A stretch of 63,757 nt of DNA, counting the filler, from Conidiobolus incongruus B7586 (lineage: Eukaryota): assembly GCA_000697335.1 (NCBI GenBank). It is 10 parts of 10 records of this genome, joined end to end, with 100 filler letters (N's around TTAATTAATTAA, not from the genome) between each part and the next. Parts side by side here need not be neighbours in the genome. Positions count along the whole stretch, not along the records: positions 52,285 to 58,578 come from JNEM01000313.1; 9 more parts are not named here. One strand, written 5' to 3'. Under the pieces are notes generated by a model. It saw nothing but the letters and a program-made list of their open reading frames with translations. It was not told the DNA's origin and ran no database searches. Positions 4,004 to 61,100 of the stretch are shown piece after piece. A program made the translations under genes and the position numbers. The first letter of the stretch is position 1, and each line of letters starts with the position of its first letter.

Positions 4004-4065
4004 GTGAGAATGCTATGCTGATTTAAGTCAGCTGCTTATTTATTTTAATTAATTTAATATATACC

Positions 4066-4767
4066 ATGAAGGCTTTTATCTACTCTTCTTTTATTGCTTC
4101 TTTGTTTGCCGGCTTTACTCCTGGCCATCCTTACAGTGAAGACGTTTGGCCCGTTGGCACTACCCAGACAATTACATGGAAATGGATTGATAATGAAAAG
4201 GACACCGCTAGCTTCAAGGATATTAAAAAGCTTCAAATTGACTTCATGACAGGTGCTGATGAAAACAATATTTTAATTTCCCCCATTGCTACTCTCGATC
4301 CTTCTGAAACTCAACTCGATTGGAAGATTCCCGATGTTCCCAAAGATGGAAAGATTTATTTCATTCGTCTAACTGGACTTGATGAATCTGGTAAATCAGT
4401 GCAATACAACTGGTCTACCCGTTTTACCATTAAGGGATCTTCTGGTAAACCCACCACCGAGCCCACCACTATCACTAAAACCACCGGTAAGGAGAAGCCA
4501 ACCAGCACTGAAAAAGATAATGATGATGAGAAGACTACTTCGAGTAAAGAGAAACCCACTAAGACCTCCTCTGATAAAGACGAACCTACTTCTACTTCCA
4601 GTTCTGAAACTGAAACCGAAACTGCCACCTCTACTACTAAGGCTAAGACCACTACCACTTCTTCTACCAAATCTTCTTACTCTCCTCAACCCGATTCTGG
4701 AAGCAACGCTTCTTTTGCCGTCTCTGGTCTCTCTTTACTCTCCGCTGCTGTCTATGCTCTCTTGTAA
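4066..4767 (+). CDS. GPI-anchored Ser/Thr-rich cell-wall protein with N-terminal Kre9/Knh1-like Ig-like domain
   Basis: 233-aa ORF: N-terminal signal peptide; ~105-aa domain (W..GTTQTITW ... W.IP ... YFIR ... YNWSTRFTI); S/T/E/K-rich stalk; hydrophobic C-terminal GPI signal (SGSNASFAVSGLSLLSAAVYALL). TATAAAAG at ~3995. Confidence 0.85.
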   Translation: MKAFIYSSFIASLFAGFTPGHPYSEDVWPVGTTQTITWKWIDNEKDTASFKDIKKLQIDFMTGADENNILISPIATLDPSETQLDWKIPDVPKDGKIYFIRLTGLDESGKSVQYNWSTRFTIKGSSGKPTTEPTTITKTTGKEKPTSTEKDNDDEKTTSSKEKPTKTSSDKDEPTSTSSSETETETATSTTKAKTTTTSSTKSSYSPQPDSGSNASFAVSGLSLLSAAVYALL

Positions 4768-5938: not shown

Positions 5939-6337
5939 TTATTTAGGCTTATTATTTAGAATTGTAAATTTAGTGCTCCAATTATAATCAATTGCAACAT
6001 TATTCTTATCATAACTCGTAATTCTGAAAAAGTATAATTTACCATCTTGACTCACTTTAGGCACTTTAAACATTGTATTGTTGGTAGTTGGAGGTAATGC
6101 TGCAATATTGACTAATAGAATATTATCATAATCTGAGCCTGACATGAAATCCACTATAATATAAACGATCTGATCTATTTTCGGTTTGCCTTCTTGATCT
6201 TGCCAACTCCATTCCACTTTTTCCAGAGTATCAGCGTACCATACCGTTTCACTCCAAGGCGTACCAGGAACATAGGTACCATAAATTGACCTTAACAAAC
6301 AAACTATACAAATTGGGAAAATACTTAGGTTTAATAT
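5939..6337 (-). pseudogene. Paralogue of the N-terminal domain of 4066..4767, lacking stalk and GPI tail; no in-frame ATG
   Basis: Shares motifs with the neighbour: PG.PWSE.VW, DFMSGSD.DNILL..IA.L.P, KVP.V..DGKLYFFRIT, YNWSTKFTI. The upstream frame encodes a signal-like LNLSIFPICIVCLLRSIYG preceded by ATA, and a TAA occurs before any ATG. Confidence 0.65.
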
Positions 6338-6801
6338 GATATAAAAATTAATAATAAGAAAATATTATAAAATTCTTTTTTTAAAAAATTATAAATAATT
6401 TCAAATTATCAATTACTAAATAAAGTAATTCAAAATTATTTCTTCAGTGAAATTTTAATCTTAATTAATTATGGTCAAGTAGTGTAAGTTGGTATAAATA
6501 TAGAGTTTTAATCATTCTTATTTATTTAATTCTAATTTAGTAGTATTTTATATAATTTTAATTAGATGGATTTATCTTATATATTGATTTTAATAACTGT
6601 AACTATTCCTTTATTTGATTAAAAAAGATACTTAATTTACTAAAATTTATTTAGTAATAGTGAAAGTAATATGAAAAAAATAATCTTATATAATATTATA
6701 TTATGAAATAATAATAATAATAATAATATAAATTAATATACTACAATTAAATAATTTTTAAATTACAATAATTAAAAAAAAATAAACTGATTTTAATTAT
6801 A

Positions 6802-7752: not shown

Positions 7753-7852
7753 NNNNNNNNNNNNNNNNNNNNNNNNNNNNNNNNNNNNNNNNNNNNTTAA
7801 TTAATTAANNNNNNNNNNNNNNNNNNNNNNNNNNNNNNNNNNNNNNNNNNNN
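7753..7852. other. Artificial assembly linker (44 N + TTAATTAATTAA + 44 N); also at 13595, 19745, 25941, 31293, 37937, 44892, 52185, 58579
   Basis: Identical 100-nt structure occurs nine times; the 12-mer places stops in all six frames. Confidence 0.97.
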
Positions 7853-10334: not shown

Positions 10335-10862
10335 TTATAGCTTACCCTGTAATTTCTTCAATCTAGAACCTGCAATGAGGACAAAATCTTGGAGGGCTGA
10401 CTTTTTATCAGCTTCCCTATCGTTCCTCTGGATACGCTCACGAATGACGGGGATGATCTGCTCGAAGGTGCGTCCATTCACGAAGATCATGAATTTGAAG
10501 CCGAATTGCTTTTCATACTGATCATTGAGATCGTTTAAGGTCTTGCGGATTTGGATCTGTTCGGGTGTTTCTTTTTGGTTGGCGTAGCCTTGTTCTTTGT
10601 AGGAGTGTTCAGATAAGGATTCTTTGGGAGCGCCGAGACGGGGATGGGCGTTAATGATTTCGATTTGACCTTCTTCGTCAAGGCTATTGATGACTAGAGA
10701 CACTTTGGATAAGAGGTCTTCAAAGCTGGTGAAGGGCTTAAGTTTGAGGAGAGGAGTAATTAAAATGGGGCATGGTTCGAATAAGTTGGAGATAAAACTG
10801 TTGAATTGAGCTTCATCAAATTGGTTGAGTTCTTCAATGGTGGGTACTTTAGTGCTAGTCAT
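10335..10862 (-). CDS. OHCU decarboxylase (2-oxo-4-hydroxy-4-carboxy-5-ureidoimidazoline decarboxylase, urate catabolism)
   Basis: Motifs LFE, INAHPRLG, LS..S..EQ, LN..YE.QFGFKFMIFVNGR, IA.SRL; intronless, 175 aa. Confidence 0.92.
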   Translation of the reverse strand: MTSTKVPTIEELNQFDEAQFNSFISNLFEPCPILITPLLKLKPFTSFEDLLSKVSLVINSLDEEGQIEIINAHPRLGAPKESLSEHSYKEQGYANQKETPEQIQIRKTLNDLNDQYEKQFGFKFMIFVNGRTFEQIIPVIRERIQRNDREADKKSALQDFVLIAGSRLKKLQGKL

Positions 10863-11162
10863 ACTATTTTACTAAACAATTATAAAACGGTGGGAGTATA
10901 GCGCTGTATTTGACTTGATGACTAATGCTATTATTAAATGGCTGAATGGATCACTCATAATGCCACTACATCATCAATATAAAGTTATGGGATTATTCCA
11001 AATCCAAGTCACAATACCTTTTAATTAAAAAATTAATAAAAATATGATTGGTTATTGGATCATATGACTGGTTATTTCATATAAAAGTGGATGTTTGAGT
11101 CAATGGATTCATTGTCATATTATCAAATAAGCTGATTGTATCCACTACTGCTCTTAACATTC

Positions 11163-12170
11163 ATGACTGATTTAGCCAACACTAATCATTTGCAGATTAC
11201 TAAATTCAAAGCCGCTGTAGTCCAAGCGGCTCCAGTTGTATTTGACCTAGATGCAACACTCCTTAAGTTAAAAGATCTTGCTAAACAAGCAGCCTCTTCA
11301 GGTGCCAAACTAGTTGTATTCCCAGAAGCCTTCTTATCTGGATATCCTAAGGGAACAACCTTTGGAAGCTATATTGGTGGTAGATCTCTAGAAGGTCGCA
11401 AATATTTCGAAAAGTACTACCGTAGTTCCATCGACATTCCTGGACCAATCGTCGATGAGTTGAGCGACTTGGCTAAAGGATTAGATATTTTCTTAGTAGT
11501 AGGATGTATCGAGCGAGGAGGAAATACTTTATACTGCACTATCATCTTCTTTGATCCCGTCAAAGGATTTTTGGGCAAACATCGTAAACTGATGCCAACA
11601 GCTGGAGAAAAATTAGTATGGGGATTTGGTGATGGCAGTACTCTTCCAGTATTCGATACTTCTATTGGTAATTTGGGTGCCGTGATCTGCTGGGAGAACT
11701 ATATGCCTTTAGTAAGAACCCATATGTATCAACAGAATATTCAATTGTATTGCGCTCCCACAGCCGATGATCGTGAATCATGGGTCAGCTCCATGCAGCA
11801 CGTCGCCAAAGAAGGAAGATGCTATGTATTTTCAAGTTGCCAGTACCTCAGAAGGAAGGATTTCCCTGAGGATTACCCCACTTTTATGAGCCAAGAACCT
11901 AATGCTATATATCTGAAAGGAGGCAGTTGTATTGTAAATCCTATGGGAGAAATCATTGCAAGTCCTAACTTCAACTGTGAAGATATTCTATATGCAGATG
12001 TCGATATGTCTGAAATCATTCGCTATCGCTGGGAATTTGATGTAGTTGGTCACTATTCAAGACCTGATATCTTCAAATTATCATCTAACTGTGAGGATCG
12101 CTCCATCAACAAAGGAAAGACTGATGACCAACTTGAAATTGACAGTAGTATTAAGAAATCTAAATTATAG
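11163..12170 (+). CDS. Nitrilase (CN-hydrolase branch 1, NIT4-like)
   Basis: Catalytic triad contexts VFPEAF (Glu), KHRKLMPT (Lys), ICWENYMP (Cys); also WGFGDGSTLPV and FDVVGHYSRPD. First ATG at 11163 (the ORF-track start at 11136 is TTG). Confidence 0.95.
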   Translation: MTDLANTNHLQITKFKAAVVQAAPVVFDLDATLLKLKDLAKQAASSGAKLVVFPEAFLSGYPKGTTFGSYIGGRSLEGRKYFEKYYRSSIDIPGPIVDELSDLAKGLDIFLVVGCIERGGNTLYCTIIFFDPVKGFLGKHRKLMPTAGEKLVWGFGDGSTLPVFDTSIGNLGAVICWENYMPLVRTHMYQQNIQLYCAPTADDRESWVSSMQHVAKEGRCYVFSSCQYLRRKDFPEDYPTFMSQEPNAIYLKGGSCIVNPMGEIIASPNFNCEDILYADVDMSEIIRYRWEFDVVGHYSRPDIFKLSSNCEDRSINKGKTDDQLEIDSSIKKSKL

Positions 12171-17572: not shown

Positions 17573-20196
17573 TTTAATTTATAAATATTTTAATTTCAGT
17601 TATATTTAGAGATATAAATTCTATTATATATATATATATATTTAAAATTTATTTTAAATAAAATTTTTTAATTATATAATTTTTTTTAATATAATATTTT
17701 TAAAAATTAAATTGATATTTTTAAATTACATAAAGTATATAAAATATTGACTAATAATTTATTAATTATTGACTTTACATTATTCATTTTAATTACTATT
17801 TATCAATAGTTGTCTAAATAATATAATATTGAACTGGAAAATAGAATAATAACTATTAAGGTTAATTGTATATATTGTTCAGTTTTATATTTTTAAAATA
17901 AATAATATAAAATATTAATTCAATAAAAATCTAATTAAACCAAAAAAACTCTCAAGGTACTCTTAATAACTCAAATTATAAAATAACATTTATTCAGAGT
18001 TATTATAATAAGTCTGTAATCACCTACAATATAAATATTGCTATATATCATGGTAGATTATATTATCATCAAATTTGTAAGTCTAACATTATTTTGTTTT
18101 AATAATTACAAGTTGATTTTTCATTAATTTTATTTGTATATCAAACACTTATTTTTTATCATTATTTTAATAAATTGAATTCTATTACATTAAATTTTAT
18201 TGGTTATCCCTTTAAAATTCATGGATTTTTTATAACTCTTTTTTATATTGAATTTTGGATATGTAATTATCAATACATCTTGATAATTGCTTGTAGCTCT
18301 AAAATGGTATAAGTAATACCTTAATCAAATTTAAGATAATATATTATAAAGTTCTTTTAAACCTGATTTTTGATAAAAAATGTAAATCACAGTCCCATAA
18401 ATAAATTTTAGGTCAATTTTATTTTCAATTCAATCCCAAAATATCTATCACAGTATCAAACCATTTAAATAATATTCAATTAATATGCTCAGGTTCAAAA
18501 TTGAATCAAGTTAATACTCTCATTGATCGTTAGATAAAATTGTCAATTTTTTTAACATCAAAGATTTTATTCATGTATTCAATTTATCTTGACCAAATTG
18601 TAATTATAAAAATAATTTATGAATCTGTAAAGTACACTGATTTCAAGGTTTAATTAAAAGTTAATTGTAAAATATTATAACTTTAAAAATTTGAATTCAA
18701 AAGTTAGTTTAATACAATTTAGCTTAACCTCTAATTTAAAATTTGAAAATATTATCAAACCATATATAATTAGAAGCAAATTCAATATCGAATCATAGTC
18801 ATAAATTTGAGCCTAAACTTGGTAAAAATATAAATTAAGTAGAATTGATATCTATATTGTGTAATACATAATTGAGTTTTAAAAATATTATATTGTTTTA
18901 AATTTGCTTAATAATATAAAATGGAAAATATTTTAATTTGTAATATTTCAAAGATATAGTTAGACTTAGAATATATAATATACTTAAAACTAATAAAAGA
19001 AAACATTTTTATATAAAATATAACATTCTCGCCTATGATATTTTTTAATAAAAGTATTTTATAATTCAAAAATTTAATGATGAATTTAATTTTGCTTAAA
19101 CTAAATTACCATTTTCTAAAATTTGCTATGTTTGTATTATTCAAACTTAATCACAATCTGTTCAAATTATTTAAATTTTATAAACAAATTATTAAGGAAA
19201 TATTTTATTCCAAATTACCATTCATCAATCAGCTTGTTATTTTAAGCTTATAATGGAAATTGTTTTAAATTTGTCAAAGCTTAGAAAATAATTTTTTATT
19301 AATATTTTGTTTATGAATTAAAAACATTTTAATGTTTATTATCATTTTCTCAATATTGCAGATCACACTTTATTTAATATATAAAAATGTAAGATAAATG
19401 ATTTTAAAATTAATATATCATTAAAAGATTAGATTAACTTTATTTTAATAAACTAACTAAAAACCAATAATTAGATAGAAAACTAAATTTCTTATATTTT
19501 ATATTTATGATTAAGATGGTTAAGTTTAGTATAGATCATTTTTTATAGATGCTTATTGTCAAAGACCCTATTTCAAACTGAATATTAGTAATTATAATAT
19601 ATTATAATATTAATAGTTTTTTATTTAATTTTTTAAATTAATTAATTTAATTTGCTATTTTTTTTTCAAATAAAATAATTTTAAATTGGTCTTATTAATA
19701 TAATAATTGATTTTATTGATTTGAATAATAATAATATGATTTAANNNNNNNNNNNNNNNNNNNNNNNNNNNNNNNNNNNNNNNNNNNNTTAATTAATTAA
19801 NNNNNNNNNNNNNNNNNNNNNNNNNNNNNNNNNNNNNNNNNNNNAAATAACCAACTTTAAAAAATTAATTTTTTAATCAAAAAAATATAATATATAAATA
19901 TATATAATTGGATAATATATAATCCTTAATATATTTTATTTATATCTATTTTTTTAAAATTAATAATATTTTGAAAAATCAAAAATTAAAAAATTTTCTA
20001 TTAATTTAAATTTAAGAAATATTATTATTTGAACTTTTTAATCAAATTATTATTAAAATACAAAAATTGTGATTTTATATAGAAATATTTATAATTAAAT
20101 TTTATAGATTATATTTAAATATTAAGTATTATCTTTCTATTTATAATAAATAATACCAAAATATCAATAAAATATAATTAAAAATATTATAATATA

Positions 20197-20570
20197 TGTA
20201 AGTGAATAACAACAGTTAAGGGTAGAGGAAGCAGGTTTCTTAACATTTTAGGAAATATATAATAACTAGATCCTTTAGTATTGAGGTGCTAATTAATAAT
20301 AATAAGAAATATATTAATAGTTAAGCAAAAGGTTTATTTATGTAAGAAGTAATATAAACTAAAGTTTTAACTAAAGAGAAGAATCTGAGTCTTTTTTATA
20401 GCTAAGTGGAATATATACACATAAATATATAAGGCTAAATAATAGTAAAGTTATTTAAATATAAAGATTTGTAAAATGTTAATAAGATTTAATTTAGATA
20501 ATTAGGTTTTTAGTAGTGAATTAAAGTAAGGAAAGGTATCAATTAAATAGCAATTGTTATAATACTTACA
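20197..20570 (-). repeat. 3' LTR
   Basis: TGTAAGT...ACTTACA inverted termini; adjacent to the polypurine tract. Confidence 0.95.
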
Positions 20571-23500: not shown

Positions 23501-25435
23501 AGTTTGATTTTATAAGACATATTTTTTTTAGTGGTAAAGTGGTTAAAACTTTAAAAACATTTCTGTATTTATTAACAACCTTATACAATAGATTTTTAAT
23601 ATCTAAGGCATTTTTTAAATCTTTTAAAAAAATATAGTGTCAAAATTAATATAAATTATATTAGATTGATTTTTTAACTTTTTAATTAAATTCACAAAAG
23701 ATATTATTGAAATTATTACATTATTAAAAAAGGTATTATTAGTACCTTCTTTTATATTAGAATTAGTTATTAGCTTATAACTTAAACTATTATAGCAAAA
23801 TAAAAAAATATGTTTATTAAATAAACTTTTATTTATGATAATTAGATAATGCTTCTAAAACCAACTAAAACTTATAATAATATTATATTTTACAAAACCT
23901 ATTATAGATTAGATTCTTTTAAAATAACCTATCACCAATAAAATATTATAATATAAAAATCCTTTGGTAGTTTATTATGTATTATTTATATAATTCAATA
24001 TCATATTCATTTAATTATAAGATAATTTAAATCTCTTAATAACATCTTTATTAATAAATATATTATTATATTTAGAGTTAAATAGGAAAAAAATAAGGTA
24101 TTTGTTTAGAGTACCTTTGAAGATTTATAAGGAACATAACTTATTTTCATTAGGATCTAATAAATAAGAGTTTAAATAGATATTACTCTTCTTCTCTAAT
24201 GAATTTTAAAATAATTTTTAGTTATTTAAATATAATTTCAAGGGTTTATTATAAAGAGTTTTTGACAAAGATTTCTCTTTATTATTTTAACTATATTAAG
24301 TTAAATTTAAACTAGATTAATTATTAATCTGTTGATTACTTTCTTTATTATTCATTTGAATATCATTATTTAATATTATATCACTAAAGTTTTTACTATT
24401 AAATAGTTTCTTGGGATATTTATTCTAATAGTAATCTATATTAATTTGTCTATAATAGAAGTATTTTTTATTCCTTCTTAAGTATAATTTCTCTTTTTTA
24501 ATTAAATACTCTTTTTTCTATATTGTAGATATATTTATAATATTAAGATTAAATGATTTAGATGGGGAATTATTAAAGCTTGTATAGAGACTCTTATTTA
24601 TTTCTTTAATATAATTCCAATTGTTTTTTACCTTAATAGCTATTTTAGTTAAAGTAACAAAACTAGCTATTTTTATATTAATCTTAGAGTAAACAACTAT
24701 AAAAATATTAGGCTTGAGTTTTCTCTTAAACCTATTTTTCTTTTTACCTTTAAATAAGTTAAGAATCTTTAATTTAAGCTAGGTAAATTATTCTACAAAA
24801 TCTTTAATTGAAGATTTCTAAGAAATCCTTGCTAGCTTATTTTAAGCTAGAGTAACTATATCTGATAGGTAAAACCTCTGCTTAATTGCTTGTTTGAATT
24901 AGTTAAATGTTTAGATCCTATTAGGATAAAAAGAACTACTAGTAAAATTAAGTATGTCTTTTAAGTGTTTATATCACTAAAGTTTAATATAAGAGGTTAA
25001 TTTAGAAGCTGAAATTTTTATTAAATTATTTAAATCTAGAGTTTTAATTTCTTCAAGGAATTTGGTTAGTTTGTCTAAAAATACTTCTAGTTTTTTAGGA
25101 GGTTTTGAGTTATTATAAGTAATTAGGTTATTTGCAAAGAACTTAACTTTGTTAAAGCTTCTTAAAGTGGATAATAAATCTCTATGACTATTTAATTCAG
25201 TTATTATTTGTTATATATAATTGATTTGCTAGGTTTACTTTAATTTCAATCTATACTTAATAAAGGTACTATTAATATTGATAAAATCTAATTAACTAAT
25301 AGAATAATAGTTATTGTTACTAAAACTTTAAATGTTTATTTTATTTTAATTATATATAAAACAATAGGTTATAATTATAAAATCTTTAATTATAACAATA
25401 AAAGTACTTTTAAATCTTCTTAATTATTGCTATTA

Positions 25436-25809
25436 TGTAAGTAAATAATAATAGTCAAGGGTAAAGGAAGCAGGTTTCTCAATATCTTAGGAAATATATA
25501 ATAACTAAATCCTTTAGTATTGAGGTGTTAATTAATAATAATAAGATATATATTAATAGTTAAACAAAAGGTTTATTTGTATTAGAAGTAATATAAGCTA
25601 AAGTCTTAGCTAGAGAGAAAAATCTGAGTCTTTTTTATAGCTAAGTAAAATATATACATATAAGTATATAAAGTTGAATAATAATAAAGTTACTCAAATA
25701 TAAGGATTTATAAAATGCTGATAAAACCAAATTTAGATAATTAAGTCTTTAGTAGTGAATTAGAAAGAGGAAAAGTATCAATTAAGTAGTAATTGTTATA
25801 ATACTTACA
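25436..25809 (-). repeat. 5' LTR
   Basis: Same length and termini as the 3' LTR; followed on the minus strand by TAATAGCAAT, readable as a G>A-decayed TGGTAGCAG-type primer-binding site. Confidence 0.95.
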
Positions 25810-41834: not shown

Positions 41835-44800
41835 TATTTTATAATTTTTTAATATTAATTAAAAATAAAAGATTTTTTTATGGCTAAAAAATGCTTATAT
41901 AGTAAGATATCTTTTTATTATTAAGTATGACTAATATATTTTCAACAAACTTTGGTTACCTAATATAATCAAAATTGGCTGATTCGAGTTGAATAATCAA
42001 ATGACAAGTTCTCAATCTCCATTCCACAGGATTTTCAAATCCACTGATTGTAATCATATTCAATCCATTCGAAGGTATACAAAAACACTTCAAACTGTGG
42101 GGAAAGGATAAAAAAACCTGAGTTTGAGATTCAATATTATCTCATCAAAAACATCAATAGAGTTTATTTTGGATATAAATACTTATAACTATATTTATTA
42201 GTAAGAATTTATGGAATAATTGATACACTTTAAAGCGTATAAACAATTTTTCCATATTTGAATTAAAAATTTAATTTTTATGATTATTTAAAATTTTACC
42301 AGATAAAATAATTAGAATATTAAATATAACTTTAAAACTATCAGAAGATTATTATAAATATTAGACAAGAATATATTAGATTATAAAGGAAATAATTATT
42401 ATATTATTAAAATTATTAACTTGCATTTTTCCATTTATTAATCTTTTGTTTTTCACCCTTTATTTTAACAATCAACAATATCAATTATAAGAATATTCCA
42501 CTAATTTTCTTATTTAATTCGAGAAAATTTTATATGAAAATTGAAAAAGAAATATTATTAATAATATATATTGAATATTAAATATTAAATACAATATTCA
42601 TCCATTATAATTATTTATTTCTTTTGTGAAAATTTATTAGTTTGATTAATAAATAATACTTATATTCATTCAAAAACAACCTAACAAATATGAAATTTAA
42701 TGATAATATCATTAATTTTGAATACCTTAATTATGATAATTCAAAACATGTTATATATAACCAATAGTCACTATCACACTATTATTCCTATATTAATAAA
42801 TTTTCATTTAAACATCCAAAATTATTTCAGTTTAAAATATAAGTTAATTGTGTTAAATTTAAAATTATCTTTAACTCTCAATTATATTAACCTCGCTTTA
42901 AAACTTCTATACCAAGAAAATAACTTAATATTATCCTTAATCATTATTACAATTAATTTAACAGTTAATTGAAATTAGAAAATACTATTTTGATCATTTT
43001 ATATTATTGTTAAAATGTTTACTCAATATATAAGTTTCTCCATAAAGTTCAGAATATTAACTTATTTTTTATCAATTAAAGTGGATTTGAATATTTTCTA
43101 AAAAAAATTTTAATTATACATAAATTATAAGTTATTCATTATAAAAATAAATTATTATTTAATATTAATAAAATATTTTTTAAAAAAAATTAAATCATAA
43201 TTTATATTATTTTAAAATTAGTACTCTTTTTCTCTAAAAAGAATATAATAGAGAAACTATTCTTTACTATCCACCTAATTTTCAAAATATTCCTAAAAAA
43301 AACAAATAATCTTATACCTTTCCATCTCGAATTCAAAATCAATTATGTTTAAATTAAAAATCCAAATTAATATAAATATTTTACCATTAAATAAATAGTT
43401 TTATACTAAAATATGCTAAAGCATATTTTCACTCAAATAATAATATTGAATTATATATAATTTTCAAATGTAAGTTTGGTTAAAATGATATAATATTATC
43501 ATACTTGAATATATACAAATTATTATTAATTAATTAAATTGTAAAATGTCAACTATTGATTGTATATGATAATAATAGCTGGACTAAATTAGATCAAAGC
43601 GGTTTATTAAATTTTAAATAACTTGGTAATTATTATAAAAATTAACCTATAGTATAATTATAATCACCACAATTTTAATACCCCAGCTTTTTGAAATAAA
43701 ATACCGAAAATGCATGGATTATTAATGACACACATATAATTAATTAATTGAGAAAGAGTTTATACTTTATAAGTATTATCATTTGATATTTAAACATTGT
43801 TTATTTTAAAAGATTTGTTTATAATGGATTTTGTTATTTGTTCACATTATTTCAAAGATGTAGATCAATACTTGATATTGTTAATATTGGACATTTTATA
43901 AAAAGTGCTCAAAATTGTGATTGATTAAAATTGAACTTAATGATATTTTTAATGGGAAATCGGAATTATCAAGTTTTTTTTATATTAAAATATAAACTAT
44001 ACATTTGATAATATTTACTATAAAATATTAATCAAAAATAAATATATCAAATTACGAGTTTATTGATTAAATCTTGATATAAATTGATTATTTTATTATA
44101 ATTATAAACTCCATAGTTACTTTTCTATGTTGATTTAGTCAAAAATTAATTAATTGCAATTATTCAAAATTTAATTAATAAAAAAATAAACTGTAAATAA
44201 ATGAATATTACAAATAATAACAACAATTATAATAGTAACTTAGTACAGTCACTCATATTTATTAGAAATTTTCTTTTATATTCTCTTTAATATAATTATC
44301 ACCAAAATATCTATTAGTTTGATAAAGCCTAAACTAATATAAAAAACAAAAATACTAATAATAATTATAATCAACATTATTAATAGTATGAATTTATTTA
44401 GGAATTTATTATTTAAAAAATAATAAACTAATATATCAAAACCATTAATTATATATTAATTAGTTATAAGTTATTATTACTATTAAATTACCAACAAAAA
44501 AAGACTGAAGAAAAGTTTAAATATATTATTAAACAGTATAATTAAAATAGATAGATATCTCCAATCAAAACTATATTTGAATAAAATTAATTTTATCACT
44601 ATCACCTTAGTTTGTAGACTATGGACTGAGCTATTCTTCCAAGTTTATATATTTTACCTAAAAACTATATTTCTAGCAAATATAAAAATCCAATATAATA
44701 TTCCAACTATCAAACAATTAATTAAATAATAAAGATATTATTAAAACCAAATAAATTTGAGTTAATCTTTAATTTAGGAAGTTATTAATAATATTTTTTA

Positions 44801-51900: not shown

Positions 51901-53968
51901 TTAAAAAAACTATTAAAAAACTATTTTCCAATAATAACTAACTCTTAATATTTTTTTAAATTAATTTAATAGAATATAAACATAAAAATTGATTGCTATA
52001 ATTTAATTATTCTTTATAAACCAATTGTCTCAAATTTTTTATTTTATTATACTTTAAGTTTTAATAGCAATATAATATAAAAAATTAAGATATTTATATA
52101 ATTTATATATACTAACATACAAAAATAAGTCATAAAATTAACATTACTCATATCTTAAATAATTTTTAATTAAATAAATTTAAANNNNNNNNNNNNNNNN
52201 NNNNNNNNNNNNNNNNNNNNNNNNNNNNTTAATTAATTAANNNNNNNNNNNNNNNNNNNNNNNNNNNNNNNNNNNNNNNNNNNNTTTTTTTATATAATTT
52301 TATATTTAATAACCAAACAAAATATTAAATTAAAATAATCCCTTTTAAAAAATTTAATAAATTAATATTTTATTTATAAGAATTTATTAATTCTTATAAT
52401 AAATTATAATAGTATAAAACCTTTATTATATTTTTAAAATTTAATTCAATTAATAATAAGTTTTATATTATTTTATATTGTTTATTAAGTAATATAATTT
52501 TTAATTGGTTTTTTTGTTATAGATTAAAGATTTCTATTATTTTATTATTATATAATATTAAAAACTAAAGTTATAAAAGTTTTTATATTAAAAAAATACA
52601 AAAGCTACCAAATTTAAAATATTCAATAAATTATAACATATATAATTATATTAGTTTTAAATATTTAAAAAAATATGCTTTTAAGAAAAAAATTCCTATA
52701 AATAATTTAAATTAATATCTAAGACATTATATTTCAATCTTTAATAACAAACTGTTTTTTAAATGTTAAAAGTTTGTTAAAGATATAATAAAGAGTCATT
52801 AATAATAAAACAGAGTATTGATTTTATATTATGTATTAATTTTTATAATTTATATTTTAATAATTTTATTGAATTTTAAAATTTTACCATTAATTAATTT
52901 AAATACTAATATTTTTAAATAATTAAATCATTTGTTTAAAATTATTATTTCATTAATGATAATTACAAATCAATTATTATTCTCTTTTAATACTATTAAT
53001 AATATATTAATAAAAAGTTAGATCTATCTAAAATCTAATATATTTAAATAAATTAACAGAATCATAAATCAAATAAGAATATCCTATAATATGAAATAAA
53101 TTCTATTTCAAAAATTATAGTATCAGCTGAAATATTCAATTTCATTGATATTACCACTTTGAGTATTCCTAATTTTTATATCTGAATCATTTAATAAAAT
53201 ATATTACAGTTAACAACAATTTATTATGCTATACAATTATGATATTTCCAAAGGATATGGTATTAATCCTAATATCAATCCAGAATATAAATTAAACTTT
53301 CATATAAATTTTTGCCAGTATTAATATTAAAATTAGTTTAACATATATTGGTAAAAAAGGTAAAATTCATAATTGATATGAAATCAATTTATGTGAAAAA
53401 TTGAAAAATTATGGAGTAGACGATTATTAGAATGATCTATTTATATTGGTTTTTTTTTAAATTTGAAAAATATAATATAATATAATATATATATATATAT
53501 GAAAGAATATATTATTTTGAAAATTTCAATGGAGTTTTGAACCAAATCATACTTATATTTAATAAAATTCTATCAAAAAATAACCAATGATAAAAATATG
53601 AAAAATTTTAATTTAAACATTTAACAATGTATTAGATAGATTGATGGAAATATAAACAATTATGTAGATCAAAAAAATAATGAATCAAGGATAGCAAGCA
53701 AAAGCACACTAAACTTTAAAAATATTAGATGGAAGGATATATATGCTAAAAATAATAAAGTAAAAATTTAGTTGTAGATGAAAAAATAGGAGATCCATAT
53801 TAATTCCAAGTGTAGTAAATATAATAATAGTAATAGTTGTAGTATATCAGATGTGTAAAATACATGACAGGTGACGATAATGGTTTGGAAAATATAGGTA
53901 CCTAATAAATATCTGTTGATGGAAATGAGCTGCTGGTTGTAACACGGGAGTAATGATGAGGTGTTATA

Positions 53969-56056
53969 TTATTCTTGAGGTCGAATTAGAACTGCAAGCT
54001 CTCGAGTCGAGCATGACTTTTGGAGGAATGGATGCTAAATGAATCGGATTAGTAAAATGATTCAATAGAGTTAATGGAAACCTTACAAGTAATAGATCTT
54101 TGGAGGAAGCACGGCTTTCAATATCTACACACAAACAAACCGAAAGGAATCGCTTGAGTTCGAAGCTTAGCGAATCGGGGTCTTTGAGCGATGGTGTGCC
54201 AATGGTTGCTATCATATAAAGTGCTTTAAGAGGCTCTTCGTCCAAATAGGGTGGCTCATTTTCGACCATTTCAATCGCCATAATACCTAGTGACCAAACG
54301 TCCACCTTGGTATCATATTCCTTCTGCTTGACGATTTCTGGCGCCATCCAGTATGGAGTTCCCACCATAGTAGCTCTCTTGCGTTGGGTATCCGATATTT
54401 TGGCACAGAATCCAAAGTCAGCTAATGGAATGGTCAATAATACTGAATAGAGTAATAAAAATGAAAAAAAACTTACTAATTTTAACAGAACCATCTTCTC
54501 CCAACAAGATATTATCACTCTTAATATCTCTATGAATAATATTCTGATCATGAAGATGCTTGAGACCTTTGCAAGTTTCTAAACATATACAGGCAATTTG
54601 CTCCTCCGTGAGGGTATTATTATCGATAGCATCTGTCAAGGGGCCTCCCTTCATATATTCCATTATTACCCAAAGATCGTTTTGGACTAAGAAACCATCT
54701 AAACAATTGACAATATTGGGGTGTTGAGCTTCCTTCATCACTGAAAGTTCGTTGTAGATAAGTTGCTTTCGAGGTTGTTTGGGTAAGTCGATCTGTTTCA
54801 TCGCGACAGTTTTATTCGTAGCTAATTGGACTCCAACGAAAACGGAACCAGAAGCACTAAAGAATAATCAATCGTTAATAAAATCGAAATAACTAAGTGC
54901 TGAACAGTTACCCTTGACCAATCTTTTGCTGTTTCTGGTAAAACTTGTTAATATCACCTGGATTGACGAGCTGTCCTATTGAATAACAGTATTAACAAAC
55001 GAATATATAGAGTACAAAATAAAATAGAGAACTTACTTAATTTCTCTATGACGACAGCATCAGACATACTTTCGGAACTCGTTAACTGATTCTTAGAGCT
55101 CTTAGAACTGTTATTAGTTTTAGAATTTTTATTACTATTCAGAGCGTCAAATGCCGTTTTGGTAGAATTTTCCCGGGAAGAACTGGGTGTTTCCTAATGA
55201 TTAGATTAGAATGAAGTACAAATACCTACATTTAAAAATTAAATACAGTAGAATCGTCAAATAATATACTCAAATGGTTCGGTAGTTCGGGTAGCAGTGA
55301 CATAGGTTGCTGGGGAGGTGCTAAGGTGGACAAACCGTTGTTCGCATTCATATCTTTGGGTATTAATCCAGTCCACTTATCGTGATAATCATCTTGGTTT
55401 TGTTGACCAGTATAAAATCCTAAAGCATCGATAACAGCTTGAGGATTTGCACTATATTCCTCTTTGGTAATATTTGATCGTTGAAGTAAAGCTGCCCAAC
55501 CGGGAGGCAAACCCTAAAGTTAATATTAATAAAAGAATTGACAATTATTAAATTTAATTACAGTAAAAGCACCGCTGACAGGGTCAAAATCGACATGAAC
55601 TTCATGAACAAAATTCGTTGGCATACTTACTGTAGCGGAGGAAGAACGCTAAAATGGTAGAAATAAATATATAGAAAGTGAATAGATGGCAAATTAAATT
55701 ACCTGATAAATGGCGTCCATCCAAGAATACAACTCTTCATCACTACTACAACTGATATATATTGTAGAGTCTTTGGTACATAGTTCAAAGCTATGTTTTT
55801 TAATTTGACTTCTTGTCACCTCTTTAATTTCTTTTAAAAATATAAGTGACTTGGGTTGAAAAGTTGACTACAAGCAAATTGTTGAATAAGTGAAAAAGAA
55901 AAATGAATTTAAAGGCATAAATAAATTTACCTCATTACGATGAAACGTTAAAGTATTCTCCTTTAATAAAGCCCACCTCCTAATAAATCTCCAACCAAAG
56001 TTACTCTTTTTAACTTCTACGTAACCTTGTTTGACAAATTCTGTAGGTCCTTCCAT
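53969..56056 (-). CDS. CLA4: PAK-family kinase, Cla4-type (PH + CRIB + kinase), 9 exons
   Basis: PH domain (VKQGYVEVK...RWALL...[10 protein letters not shown]); CRIB ([29 protein letters not shown]); kinase ([48 protein letters not shown]); all introns GT-AG; stop TAA 53969-53971. Confidence 0.93.
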
Positions 56057-56958
56057 AACTTTTTATTATTTAAAGTTTAGCTGACTTTATAATGACTATT
56101 ATTGAATATAGAATGAATAATTGATTATATTCTGATTGATATTATTCTATTAATAATAAATATTAAAATAAACTTTAATAATTAACAAAGAATATTAAAA
56201 GCTAAGAATAATAATAGTAATATTTTAAATATAATGAGAGAGTATAAACTTTATAAAAAAGATTAAAAAAACTATGAAACTTTATAAAATAGTCAAGAAT
56301 AATAATGTTAAATTATTTAATAAATTTTTAAGTTTAATGGAATTTTGGATAATGCATTCAATATATTCTCGAAGTTTTTCCTAATTTGGAACCAGTCATG
56401 ATGAAAATTTATTTGAGTTTTTTAATTTATTTTTCTATTTTGGAAATTGAATATGATGTAATGTTAGGAATAGAGTCAATACATGATCATTATAGTTGGT
56501 TATCATATAGTTTGGGAACTTTTATTAGATCATAGATATATTATAAAGAACTATCCAATTTTGATCTATTTCTCTAATATTCATTTAAAACTATCTAATT
56601 TGAAATATGTTGAATATAACTGAATTTTGATATTTAGAATATATGATATATTTGCTATTGAGTTACATCAGCTTTTCGAATCCAAAATAACCTTTAATTA
56701 ATAATGGATATATTAATCAATATCGTGCTACTGGAACGGAGTTTATGGTGAATAAATTAAATTGACAGGATATCAAAATATATAATTGGAATTCATATTG
56801 ATTACTATGTTCATAAAAATTTTCATTATATTTTCCTCGATCTTAAAAACATATTTTATTACGGTTAAATAATAAATTAAAAATTAATTTTAAATTATTA
56901 TCTGAGTGATTAATTAAATTAATTGATTATATGTTAAATTTTATTCCATCATAATTAT

Positions 56959-57090
56959 CGCTTTAAATTTAACTAGTCCAAAATTAATCAAATTTGATCA
57001 TCCTTGTCCAAGACTTGCATGGTGTCCAGAGATCCCAAGGGAGTAAACCCCAATACCAATCCTGGAAGACTGGCTTGATTAATTCTCAAA
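56959..57090 (-). ncRNA. Candidate omegaRNA scaffold / transposon right end of the Fanzor element
   Basis: GC-enriched segment overlapping the ORF 3' end, with hairpins GCCAGTC-ttccag-GATTGGT, GGGG-ttta-CTCC and TGATCA-aatt-TGATTA, ending ...TTTAAAGCG before AT-rich flank; position fits TnpB/Fanzor omegaRNAs. Confidence 0.55.
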
Positions 57091-58130
57091 CAACAAAGGA
57101 GTATGATTCTAATAGCATTGATGCCTAGATCTATCTTTACATAACATTGAGGACGCTTGAAAGTATTGCTTAATCTAAGTTACATATGCAAATAACCACA
57201 ATTACCACATGTTTTTCTTGGGCGATGCTTCTTACAAATGACAACTTCGTACCAAAGATTTTCTCTTGTTTTGTTGAATAAGCTTTGTTTAAATCTGTAA
57301 TGAAACTAATTTAAAATTGCTTATATATATGTATTTACCCAGTATATTTATTAGCTTTTTTATTATTTTCTGAGTTCTAAATTCAAGAAACAAAATTACA
57401 AGGTATTATTCAATAATATACTTAAAATTTTCTTTTATACCTTTTTTGTATATTTCTAACCTTTTAATTTTTTATATACTTTTATTATATTTTATTATCT
57501 TTCTTATTTTTCAAATTTCTTTATAAGACCATCTGATTTATAATTTATTATAAATATATTAAAAATTATAAATTTTCCTAATATTTATATTTTATTTATT
57601 TAATCAAAATATTCAAAAAATACTTATTTAAAAAATCTATATTCTTTAATAAAAAGTTAAAATTCCTTTTTTAATAGTATTTTATTCAAGAGTTTAATTA
57701 TATTTTAATATCCAATAATATTAAAATACAAAAATATAATTCACCAAGTTTTGTCTTTTGAAGGTAATAACCTTAATCGAGTTTTTTAGCAATTAATTAA
57801 TTATTTAAATTAATCTCTCTTTCAAGAAAAAAAATAATATATAATATTCATTTTTTAACTTTTATAGTATATTATAATTAATAATTTTTCTCTAAGTTTG
57901 ATTTCATTTAACAAATTAATATCTTAATATATTTAATAAATAATTTTTCTATTTTATTAGCAATATTATATGGATTTTTTATTACAGATTGTTTTTTGTT
58001 ATTAAAATAATATACAAAGATTAATTATTTTTAATTTTTTTTGAAATATATTATTTCTATTAACTTTAATAAGACCTTATTTATAAGTTTATTTTGTTAT
58101 CATACAAATTTATTTAAGTTTTCTTTTGTT
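56988..58130 (-). pseudogene. Fanzor2/TnpB-like RNA-guided nuclease fossil
   Basis: Manual minus-strand translation gives, in order: TK*TYK*GL; PYNI; LQKTKLGELYFCI; ghost RuvC-I; IRKIY...YNKL*IRWS; YLVILFLEFRTQ; AILN*FHYRFKQSLFNKTRENLWYEVVICKKHRPRKTCGNCGYLH...TFKRPQC.VKIDLGINAIRIILL. This matches the recalled Fanzor2 consensus (TARWTYN, TPYDIR, RLGEFY.CIP, LDPGVRTF, ILLPEF, WSHYRF, DE..TSKTCGxCG, FxCPxC, DRDxNAARNIL). Confidence 0.85.
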
Positions 58131-61100
58131 TAAAATTTACAAAATAAATGACTTCTTTGGTTATATTTTAGTATTTTATTTTTTCTTTCATAATTAAATT
58201 TTATTTTCTTAAGAATTTTCCAAATATAATATATTATTCTTTATTAAATAATAGTTATTAAATTTCAATATAATTATTTATAAATTTTTTTCTTAAACCA
58301 AGTTTTTAATATTTTTACCAAAAGTTATATTTTATAAGAAAAATCTAAAAACTTTAAATTTATAATAGGAAAATATATTTTAATTGATATTATTCTGTAT
58401 TCTTAATAATAAGAATTTGATATAATTAGAAATAAATAAATATTTTGATATATAATATATTAAAATAATAATATAAAATAATATTAACTTTTTGTTTAAT
58501 TTTTAATAAATTTTAATAATTAAAAAATAAATCTATTTAATTAAAAATTAAAATATGATGTTTTACAAATTAATAAAANNNNNNNNNNNNNNNNNNNNNN
58601 NNNNNNNNNNNNNNNNNNNNNNTTAATTAATTAANNNNNNNNNNNNNNNNNNNNNNNNNNNNNNNNNNNNNNNNNNNNTAGAAAAAAATATTATATCTAA
58701 TATATTCTTTAGATTATAACTTATATGATTATAATTGTTTTAAGCAATTAACTAACTAGCTTACAAGAAAGAAAATTTTTATAAAAAAATTTAATTAGTT
58801 TATAAAATATAAAATTTTAGTCATTAATAAGAAGAATTATTTTTTAGGTATTAAAATTTTGCTTAAAATATTATAAAAAAATATTAAAAAAATTATTAAT
58901 TTTAAAATATATATTTATTTTTATTTTTTATATATTAATATATTAATTTTTTTTTAATTTCAAAAAATTCCCATTATTTAGATTAAAAAATATTAATTTA
59001 TTTTATAAATATTAAAATAAAATTAATAATTATAATAAAAATTTTAAATATATATATTATTATTAATGAATTTTTTTTAAACTTTCAAAAATATTTTAGA
59101 AAATATAAAATCAGAACTGATAGTAATATGGCTGACAATACCTTTGATTCTGAGTCTATAAGCTCAATATAGCTATATCACTGATAAGATTCTGGTTAAG
59201 ATTGCAATAAAAAAGATGATCGGAATAAATTAGAGGAGTAAAACTAACAAAATATACAACTAAAGGGAGGGGAAATTTTGGGATCCATAACTTCAATAAA
59301 GGGTGGTCCATTGTAATTAGAATTTAAAAATAAATCTATAAATCCCCTTTATAGAGTTATTGCACCTAAGGTTAATTTGGTTAATAATATATAAACAAAT
59401 AATCCAACTGATATTTTACTCCTATTAATTTGTGATTTCTCCTAAATAGCTGAGGATTCCACCAAAAGCTAATAATAAAAAAATTATTAATTTTATAATT
59501 TTGATATAATTTTGTTAACAAAATGATATGAGTATTAATTTTAAATTATTGATGTATTTTATAATATATGTCATAAATATCAAATAATTTCAAGATATTA
59601 ATTTAAAAAAAGTTTCAGATAATAATACCAGAATCAATTAATAAAGGTGACAAGATATATATAGTCAAATTGACAAGGTTTAGTAATTAATAATATTCAA
59701 ATATTTTATCTATTATAAAATTATTATAGAATAAAATTTTTCCATTTAATAAATTGAGAATATTTTTTATTATTACAAATATAAAATCATAAATTATAAC
59801 TTTATATAATATATATTTTAAATATTTAAGAAATTAAAATATAATTATGATTCTAATTTATATCAATCATTGTATTTTAAATATATTGAAAAAATTTAAT
59901 ATAATTAGTGTTATATATATCTAATATATTTTTGAACTTTGAATTCAATTTATATTAATAATATTGCCAATATGGAAAATTATAAATAATATTAGATTAA
60001 ATATATTTGATCAAATTCTAAAATTATTTATAATAATAAGTAATATAAATTAATTAATTATGTATAATTCAATAAATATAATAATATATAATATTTCATA
60101 ACTCAGGATAATATTTTAGTAAAATAATTTGATAGGTTATCAAAATCAATATATCAGTTTGAATTAAATATATAGTATCATTATTACTTACCAAAATTCT
60201 TGGTTTTTTAAATATATAAAAAATTATTATAAGATGTTTGATTATATATAGTATATCACTATAAAAGAAATTAATTATATAAATTTTAAAGTGAAAATCT
60301 AATATTTTTAAAATGTTTAAAATTATTAATATTGATATTAATAATATTATTTAATTTATAAAGATGTTATATATTGTATCAATATAATATGTTGTTAAAA
60401 TTTTGAAAAATAATGAACTAAATTTCCAAAAGTATGCTTTAAAATAATATTTTAGTGAAATACCTTTTTAAAAATAATGATTTATTTGTTAATAGTAAGA
60501 TGGATATTATAATGGTTATTAATAAAGACTATCACTATACCGTTTTGAACTTTTATTATTGTCAAAATTAGTTAAATATCACCTACTTTTTAACGGCGTA
60601 ATAATCAAAGTATTCGGTTTGCTCATAAGTTGAAAATAACCATATTTAAGGATAGATTTAGAAAGAATTCAGCATATGAAATAATATAACTTCAAAACCT
60701 GTAAGAATCTTTGGTGCAATGACTAATGTATTAATATACAAGTATAGTTTTTAGATATAATGTCTGATTACCTAATGATCTTAGTCAATTAATAGAACTA
60801 TTTGAATAATTAAAGTAATTGAATTGACTTTATAATATTTTAAAATATATTAAAATCTAAATATATATATTTGTTCTAATAAAAACATTTATTATTAAGA
60901 GTTCATTATTGAACTAAAGATTTTATTCTTATACTATTAAAGATAATCAATATAGAGAATTATATATCACGAAAATATATAATTTTATATAACATTTCAG
61001 TATATTTATAATATCAAATCTTATTTTAAATAATTTAATGTTATATTTATAATAGGAATTAAAACATAGCCTAAAAAATGAATTTTGATATTAATTAAAT

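Follow-up and report, generated by a model that had tools for sequence, protein, structure and literature searches.

A decayed fungal Fanzor2 element that very probably retains its right end and omegaRNA scaffold

Fanzor2 genes occur in IS607-like elements without inverted repeats (PMC3627910), and an RNA abutting the right end has been described (PMC10530073). The scaffold of NlovFz2 has been mapped experimentally; as reported there, it carries a G-rich hairpin and a TGCA motif and ends in GCG, its guides begin directly after GCG with A, T and T as first bases at three loci, it recognises CCG as target motif, and CCGTT opens the motif annotated at its left end (PMC10432273). In that work, Saito et al. 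list the N. lovaniensis protein that we call P0120 in the FZ2 branch, and report that ghost omegaRNAs of Spizellomyces work for SpuFz1 (PMC10432273). In the ApmFz2 structure, a loop near the start of the scaffold forms a pseudoknot with the scaffold's final bases, a pairing that plain folding misses (PMC11832414). A pseudoknot is likewise described as required for the ISXfa1 TnpB, where a single mismatch in it lowered activity more than 10,000-fold and where the first flank base belongs to the scaffold, and it has been proposed for Fanzor2 generally (10.1101/2023.08.09.552727). Our literature searches on Fanzor in arbuscular mycorrhizal fungi, on NlovFz2 and on repeat-induced mutation found no paper on the fungal Fanzor2 family described here.

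We analysed a stretch of 63,757 nucleotides from the fungus Conidiobolus incongruus B7586 (hereafter the window) and conclude that it very probably contains the right end of a multi-copy IS607-type Fanzor2 element with its omegaRNA scaffold, preserved as a decayed relic that likely no longer works (Table 1). Judged by its sequence, the element appears to be a Fanzor2 of the Naegleria NlovFz2 type. The scaffold lies at the 3′ end of the gene and runs to the element boundary; its 3′ end is exact, and its 5′ end is placed by analogy with NlovFz2.

Table 1. Features of the element's right end and its surroundings (positions in the window)
Feature	Position	Strand	Evidence
omegaRNA scaffold / transposon right end, ~118 nt (predicted)	56959..57076	-	model match, sister copies, NlovFz2 landmarks
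5′ stem-loop, 7 bp (hairpin 1)	57055..57074 (arms 57074-68/57061-55)	-	relatives show a hairpin here (by eye)
Pseudoknot hairpin (hairpin 2), 3-bp stem 57051-49/57042-40 with 6-nt loop 57048-57043	57040..57051	-	comparison with relatives
Third stem-loop	57021..57036	-	comparison with relatives
TGCA motif of scaffold core	57016..57019	-	aligns to the model's UGCA; also in NlovFz2 scaffold
Last stem-loop (hairpin 3), includes TGA stop	56985..57000 (arms 57000-56995/56990-85)	-	6/6 pairs, probability 0.99
Pseudoknot 3′ strand and terminal GCG, element right boundary	56959..56965	-	relatives and sister contigs
Flanking host DNA in guide position, 20 nt, 15% GC	56939..56958	-	no sister contig aligned below 56950; NlovFz2 analogy
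Fanzor2 pseudogene, three collinear remnants in three frames	56988..57763	-	tblastn and profile matches
Host gene, PAK/Cla4-like kinase (PH, PBD, kinase), several introns	53964..56056	-	Pkinase and PBD matches; weak PH match, E 0.011
N spacer / contig break beyond gene side of element	58579..58678	.	N runs

The window has a GC content of 20% and is broken every 5-8 kb by N spacers. These are identical 100-nt blocks (44 N, 12 bases, 44 N), found at 7753-7852 and in eight further places, up to 58678; they are an artefact of joining contigs, so neighbours across a spacer are possibly not adjacent. The nearest break on the gene side lies 1620 nt from the right end of the element. Intron-containing genes are present in the window, and the kinase gene of Table 1 probably starts ~900 nt beyond the right end on the same strand, if its start codon, deduced from the translation, is correct. 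Elsewhere the window contains a 300-nt direct repeat (20195-20494 and 25434-25733, 87% identical), a convergent look-alike pair at 4027-4767 (+) and 5939-6364 (-) that presumably encodes secreted Ser/Thr-rich cell-wall-type proteins, and a divergent, intron-poor pair at 10335-10868 (-) and 11136-12170 (+) whose products we take to resemble OHCU decarboxylase and nitrilase. An AT-rich 9-base inverted repeat flanks the right-end junction (56933-56973), probably by chance in DNA of 17% GC.

The protein remnant appears closest to the Fanzor2 type, with a C4 zinc finger and RuvC-III predicted at its C terminus. A profile built from 22 relatives has ApmFz2 as its best PDB match (E 6e-40), and the remnant, with X written for its stop, is 61% identical over 104 residues to a natural relative (P0123), 55% identical to P0002 from Racocetra and 41% identical to P0120, the listed Fanzor2; searches for a protein more than 61% identical to it found none. 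Both tblastn and profile matches place the three remnants at 57763-57704, 57585-57337 and 57320-56991, and weaker similarity may extend upstream as far as ~58156. The nuclease gene is dead and its catalytic triad is gone: 15 premature stops lie in 57702-56991, the frame changes twice, the equivalents of ApmFz2 E467 and D501 are K (at 57230) and G (at 57125), the RuvC-I aspartate, aligned by eye, is Y at 57651 with a stop codon after it, and one zinc-finger Cys has become R. The DPG motif in RuvC-I and a shifted RuvC-II glutamate are present in close relatives, and their positions are recognisable but altered here; the PF07282 match to the relic (E 0.005) falls below the cut-off. No left end, transposase or serine-recombinase remnant is recognisable between the right end and the contig break.

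An earlier reading made from the sequence alone (the sequence-only reading) had the frame continuing to a TGA at 56990-56988. The TGA is in place, and read-through to it is a family trait, since P0123 has the same C-terminal tail ending QI; the frame itself is open for only 63 codons, from 57179 to 56991, preceded by an in-frame TAA at 57182-57180, with numerous stops further upstream. Decay is uneven along the relic. GC content rises from 13% in 58150-57345 to 30% over the final 240 coding bases and 38% at the right end, a gradient absent from five intact relatives, and the last 350 nt at the 3′ side are far better preserved than the remainder. The gradient could stem from weaker mutation near the kinase gene, from conversion by a younger copy or from selection that once acted on the RNA.

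The boundary of the element is defined by its sister copies. The stretch was found in four of seven sequencing runs, all of one sample, which is possibly the window's own source. In two of these runs, 96 and 94 contigs align on 56500-57700 at 80% likeness, with a depth peak at 56951-57073; among 49 X1 contigs on 56920-57099, none is 99% alike and 42 are less than 90% alike. Runs X5 and X7, from another sample with the same species label, gave 0 and 1 aligned contigs, respectively, which is not proof of absence. Depth falls gradually over 56985-56950, with no one-base drop, and no contig reaches below 56950. Eight contigs that leave the alignment at 56966 carry seven more common letters, GTAAGCG (minus strand), and agreement after this exit is 0.59 over 30 letters, compared with 0.82 after the exit at 57080 on the gene side. 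Not one of the 49 diverged contigs runs on into this copy's flank, as expected of a multi-copy element with different flanks. Sharing among copies thus stops at the GCG ending at 56959, 29 bases past the stop codon. The loose end at 57080 was considered as a 5′ boundary and ruled out, because sister copies continue there into RuvC-III-like sequence; the lower depth towards the gene comes from the decay of this copy itself and marks no boundary.

Relatives that are nearly identical but inserted at different sites place the end at the same motif. L056 and L058 (99.6% over 2083 nt) diverge right after GCG, and L003 and L048 (99.6% over 2059 nt) one base past it. Together with the sister contigs, these pairs bear out the earlier prediction that conservation among copies would end at GCG and not at the stop codon. 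The end TTTAAAGCG at 56967-56959 and the flank ATAATTATGATGGAAT from 56958 downwards are as first described, the placement of a scaffold with its right end at 56959 agrees with the sister copies, the model match and the NlovFz2 landmarks, and a guide position starting at 56958 is consistent with the divergence of relatives at or one base after GCG.

A Fanzor2 3′ region whose true right end lies a few bases off 56959, for instance with one flank base in the scaffold and the guide shifted, would be in keeping with ISXfa1, whose scaffold is reported to include that base (10.1101/2023.08.09.552727). The base after GCG is T in 11 of the 21 relatives with a letter there, L003, L004 and L048 all having T, and one sister contig aligns to 56953. 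Against this, L056 and L058 diverge already at the base immediately following GCG, each of the four bases is found at this position in some relatives, and the NlovFz2 guides described at three loci start directly after GCG with A, T and T (PMC10432273), which makes a displaced end very doubtful. We retain 56959 as the right end.

Within this boundary, the GC-rich part is shorter than the ~130 nt first supposed, covering only ~80 nt (45-53% GC in 57080-57001) and giving way to 20% GC in the last 40 nt. All three hairpins of the sequence-only reading have complementary arms, including the arm pair 57051-48/57043-40 originally given for hairpin 2; yet only hairpin 3 appears in the predicted ensemble (0.99), and hairpins 1 and 2 remain below 1%, although 7/7 pairs are possible in hairpin 1. 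Hairpin 2 is really a 3-bp stem with a 6-nt loop, and the pseudoknot, the third stem-loop and the TGCA motif had been missed. In 22 relatives the hairpin 2 stem is 95.5% paired, with GC, AU or UA as its middle pair. The third stem-loop keeps 4/6 pairs in this copy, with mismatches at 57034/57023 and 57033/57024; worked out by hand, the commoner sister-copy letters at 57033 and 57023 would pair. At 57047 and 57042, most sister copies have C and this copy has T. A guessed helix, 57014-09/56977-72, failed in the tested register (2/6 pairs).

Taken alone, this sequence would also suit a reading in which the hairpins arose by chance in the relatively GC-rich coding tail of a pseudogene and neither a scaffold nor an element end is present. 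Its fold gives z = -1.2, with 21 of 200 shuffles as good, an Rfam search of the segment returned no match at E up to 5, and the end motif occurs at chance frequency (TTTAAAGCG at up to one mismatch: 20 in the window vs 19.4 expected). Support for the scaffold therefore comes from comparison with relatives and not from the single sequence. Two more exact TTTAAAGCG matches, at 42229 and 42894, share nothing beyond the motif. Within the window we found no second copy of the element and no other perfect 12-nt seed match of the guide position. A sigma-70 scan gave nothing above chance, and this promoter type is irrelevant to a eukaryote.

For the comparison, 160 related loci were fetched and 156 sequences, including the window, were anchored on RuvC-III. 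A pattern consisting of a G-N-G stem and a loop of 5-7 bases starting G-C or G-T was found in only 33 of the 156, so the covariation applies to a sub-clade. Three duplicates and five sequences with too little downstream DNA were removed, and the hairpin was defined blind to what lies downstream. In 21 of 24 relatives, a perfect complement to loop bases 1-5 with a G after it is present downstream, against 5/406 in cross-locus controls (another locus's different loop) and 190/4800 in shuffled ones; the window itself fails this exact test. We then aligned 22 ends (15 test positives and 7 picked by eye, a choice that leans towards structure), in which 95.5% of cells pair, 40 change on both sides vs 11.9 in shuffles, and four of the six loop-end pairs covary. 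The covariation check suggested with the sequence-only reading thus comes out in its favour, with compensatory changes preserving the pseudoknot in 21 of the 24 relatives tested. All 22 aligned ends have the terminal GCG, the rows having been chosen with this end. A covariance model built from the 22 relatives, with the window excluded, has its best match in the 63.7 kb at 57098-56955 (26.4 bits, E 0.011; next-best match 16.4 bits), although its E-value calibration is rough and the model is insensitive, with 11 matches among 30 held-out loci.

The proteins of these relatives (P0002-P0122) point the same way: many of their C-terminal tails, such as LGLTP, VGAYP and WGLT, are translations of the conserved RNA hairpin in one frame or another, so that gene ends vary and the DNA motif stays constant. 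This reading of one motif in several frames, the covariation, the independent covariance-model match and a sister-copy boundary 30 nt beyond the stop all count against chance structure, an account that we consider largely refuted and extremely improbable. A best-score search for the hairpin and its partner had chosen incorrect pairs at many loci as well as in the window, and was superseded by the anchored test. By blastn, the 3′ end gave nothing significant against the 160 related loci, and a search of viral contigs with a 19-base hairpin pattern found nothing.

Affiliation with IS607-type elements is supported by a serine-recombinase motif in 19 of the 33 GCG-end relatives, with Resolvase confirmed for L048. 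Three relatives (L048 1390-3559, L004 231-2410 and L003 to 2191) are complete-looking IS607-type elements with CCGTT at the left and GCG at the right; in each, the serine recombinase overlaps the Fanzor2 start, with frameshifts in L048. The sequence common to L004 and L048 starts at CCGTT. The left junction of L003 and L048 was rejected as the left end because L004 and L048 share sequence further upstream. In a second clade (L060, L067-L070, L072, L074, L077 and L078), copies diverge after another end motif, TGTATCTG, nearer the gene.

The state of this copy's RNA differs from that of its relatives. Using the commoner sister-copy letters, and working by hand, the loop pairs with its own end in 6/6 Watson-Crick pairs. 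This copy carries T at 57047 and two changes at 56965-56964, which leave four of six pseudoknot pairs (G-C, a U-G wobble, U-A and U-A) and two mismatches; the terminal GCG and TGCA survive. The working guide system implied by the sequence-only reading is not supported: the gene is a pseudogene without its catalytic triad, and the pseudoknot has lost two pairs and is weakened at a third. The RNA of this copy thus likely no longer guides, with some doubt coming from the four remaining pairs and the much better kept 350 nt at the 3′ side. Among sister copies (40 best-supported rows), 28 of the 68 variable places show C>T or G>A changes, and at 57051-57048 the conserved G's of the stem are altered in 13-32% of depth. 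Such variation is consistent with neutral decay under a C-to-T bias.

Alternatively, the RNA end could still be expressed even though the copy is dead, and an intact Fanzor2 at another locus in the genome could take it up in trans, in the manner of the Spizellomyces ghost omegaRNAs reported to function for SpuFz1 (PMC10432273). It would then target the empty allele that lies upstream of the Cla4-like kinase gene. A 3′ end better kept than the rest, with its GC gradient not seen in the intact relatives, and the survival of GCG, TGCA and four pseudoknot pairs would suit such a role. The differences from sister copies at pseudoknot and stem positions, however, go in the damaging direction, one pseudoknot mismatch is reported to have been ruinous for ISXfa1 (more than 10,000-fold; 10.1101/2023.08.09.552727), and conserved G's are freely lost among sister copies; the lack of any protein closer than 61% is weak evidence against an intact partner. 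We regard trans-guiding by this copy as very improbable. Broader still, and scarcely to be credited, is the idea that this fungus retains the right ends of dead Fanzor2 copies as a collection of guide RNAs that act in trans with a nuclease still intact, with this one aimed ~900 bases upstream of the Cla4/PAK-like kinase gene and its better-preserved last 350 bases a trace of that selection. Guiding in trans by dead copies, if real, would bear on the role of Fanzors in their hosts, but the present evidence speaks against it.

A decayed right end remains the preferred reading, and characterised relatives suggest how the active element may have worked. A transcript would have run through the end of the nuclease gene, past GCG (56959) and into host DNA. 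The scaffold core would be the pseudoknot formed by the hairpin 2 loop and the last bases before the terminal G, and the guide would be the next ~20 host bases, from 56958 downwards. The nuclease would then cut the empty insertion site beside a short motif, probably CCG, a motif proposed by analogy, since our analysis revealed neither a left end nor an empty site for this family. A filled site shows GCG instead and would be spared, and repair from the filled copy would retain the element, a homing-type maintenance.

As it stands, the finding adds one decayed fungal family to a published system and matters little. It is of use mainly through the rule seen in 21 of 24 relatives, that in NlovFz2-type elements the six bases of the loop pair with those preceding the terminal G, which lets the guide start be read from any copy; the rule also points to intact metagenomic members for editing screens. 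It further reveals a fungal genome with dozens of copies decaying mainly by C-to-T changes.

Among described systems, NlovFz2 is matched in its G-rich short-loop hairpin, TGCA, AT-rich linker and GCG end (scaffolds compared by eye), in a protein 40-41% identical over the C-terminal 75 residues, and, for the relatives L004 and L048, in a start at CCGTT like the annotated Naegleria left-end motif (PMC10432273). Unlike the NlovFz2 scaffold as reported (~144 nt), the one proposed here measures ~118 nt, and the gene reads through nearly all of it, with its stop 29 nt before the end; the host is a fungus, the nuclease is dead and the pseudoknot is damaged. ApmFz2 (mimivirus L79, PDB 9B0L), the best solved-structure match, shares the shifted position of the RuvC-II glutamate, a residue altered in this copy, and the loop-to-end pseudoknot seen in the relatives, whereas it is described as viral and active, with a GGG target motif and a 205-nt scaffold (PMC11832414). 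The closest named proteins are the mycorrhizal Fanzor2-like fragments from Racocetra, Gigaspora, Diversispora and Scutellospora; compared as protein fragments only, P0002 and P0280 likewise end in a tail that reads into the hairpin. With the IS607 TnpB reRNA of ISXfa1, the locus probably shares a serine-recombinase transposon family, along with a scaffold ending at the right end, a pseudoknot (intact in its relatives), and an end triplet that would differ from the target motif, so that the filled site would be spared; ISXfa1, as described, is bacterial, with a GG core and an intact transposase, whereas the element here has a CG end and no recognisable transposase (10.1101/2023.08.09.552727).
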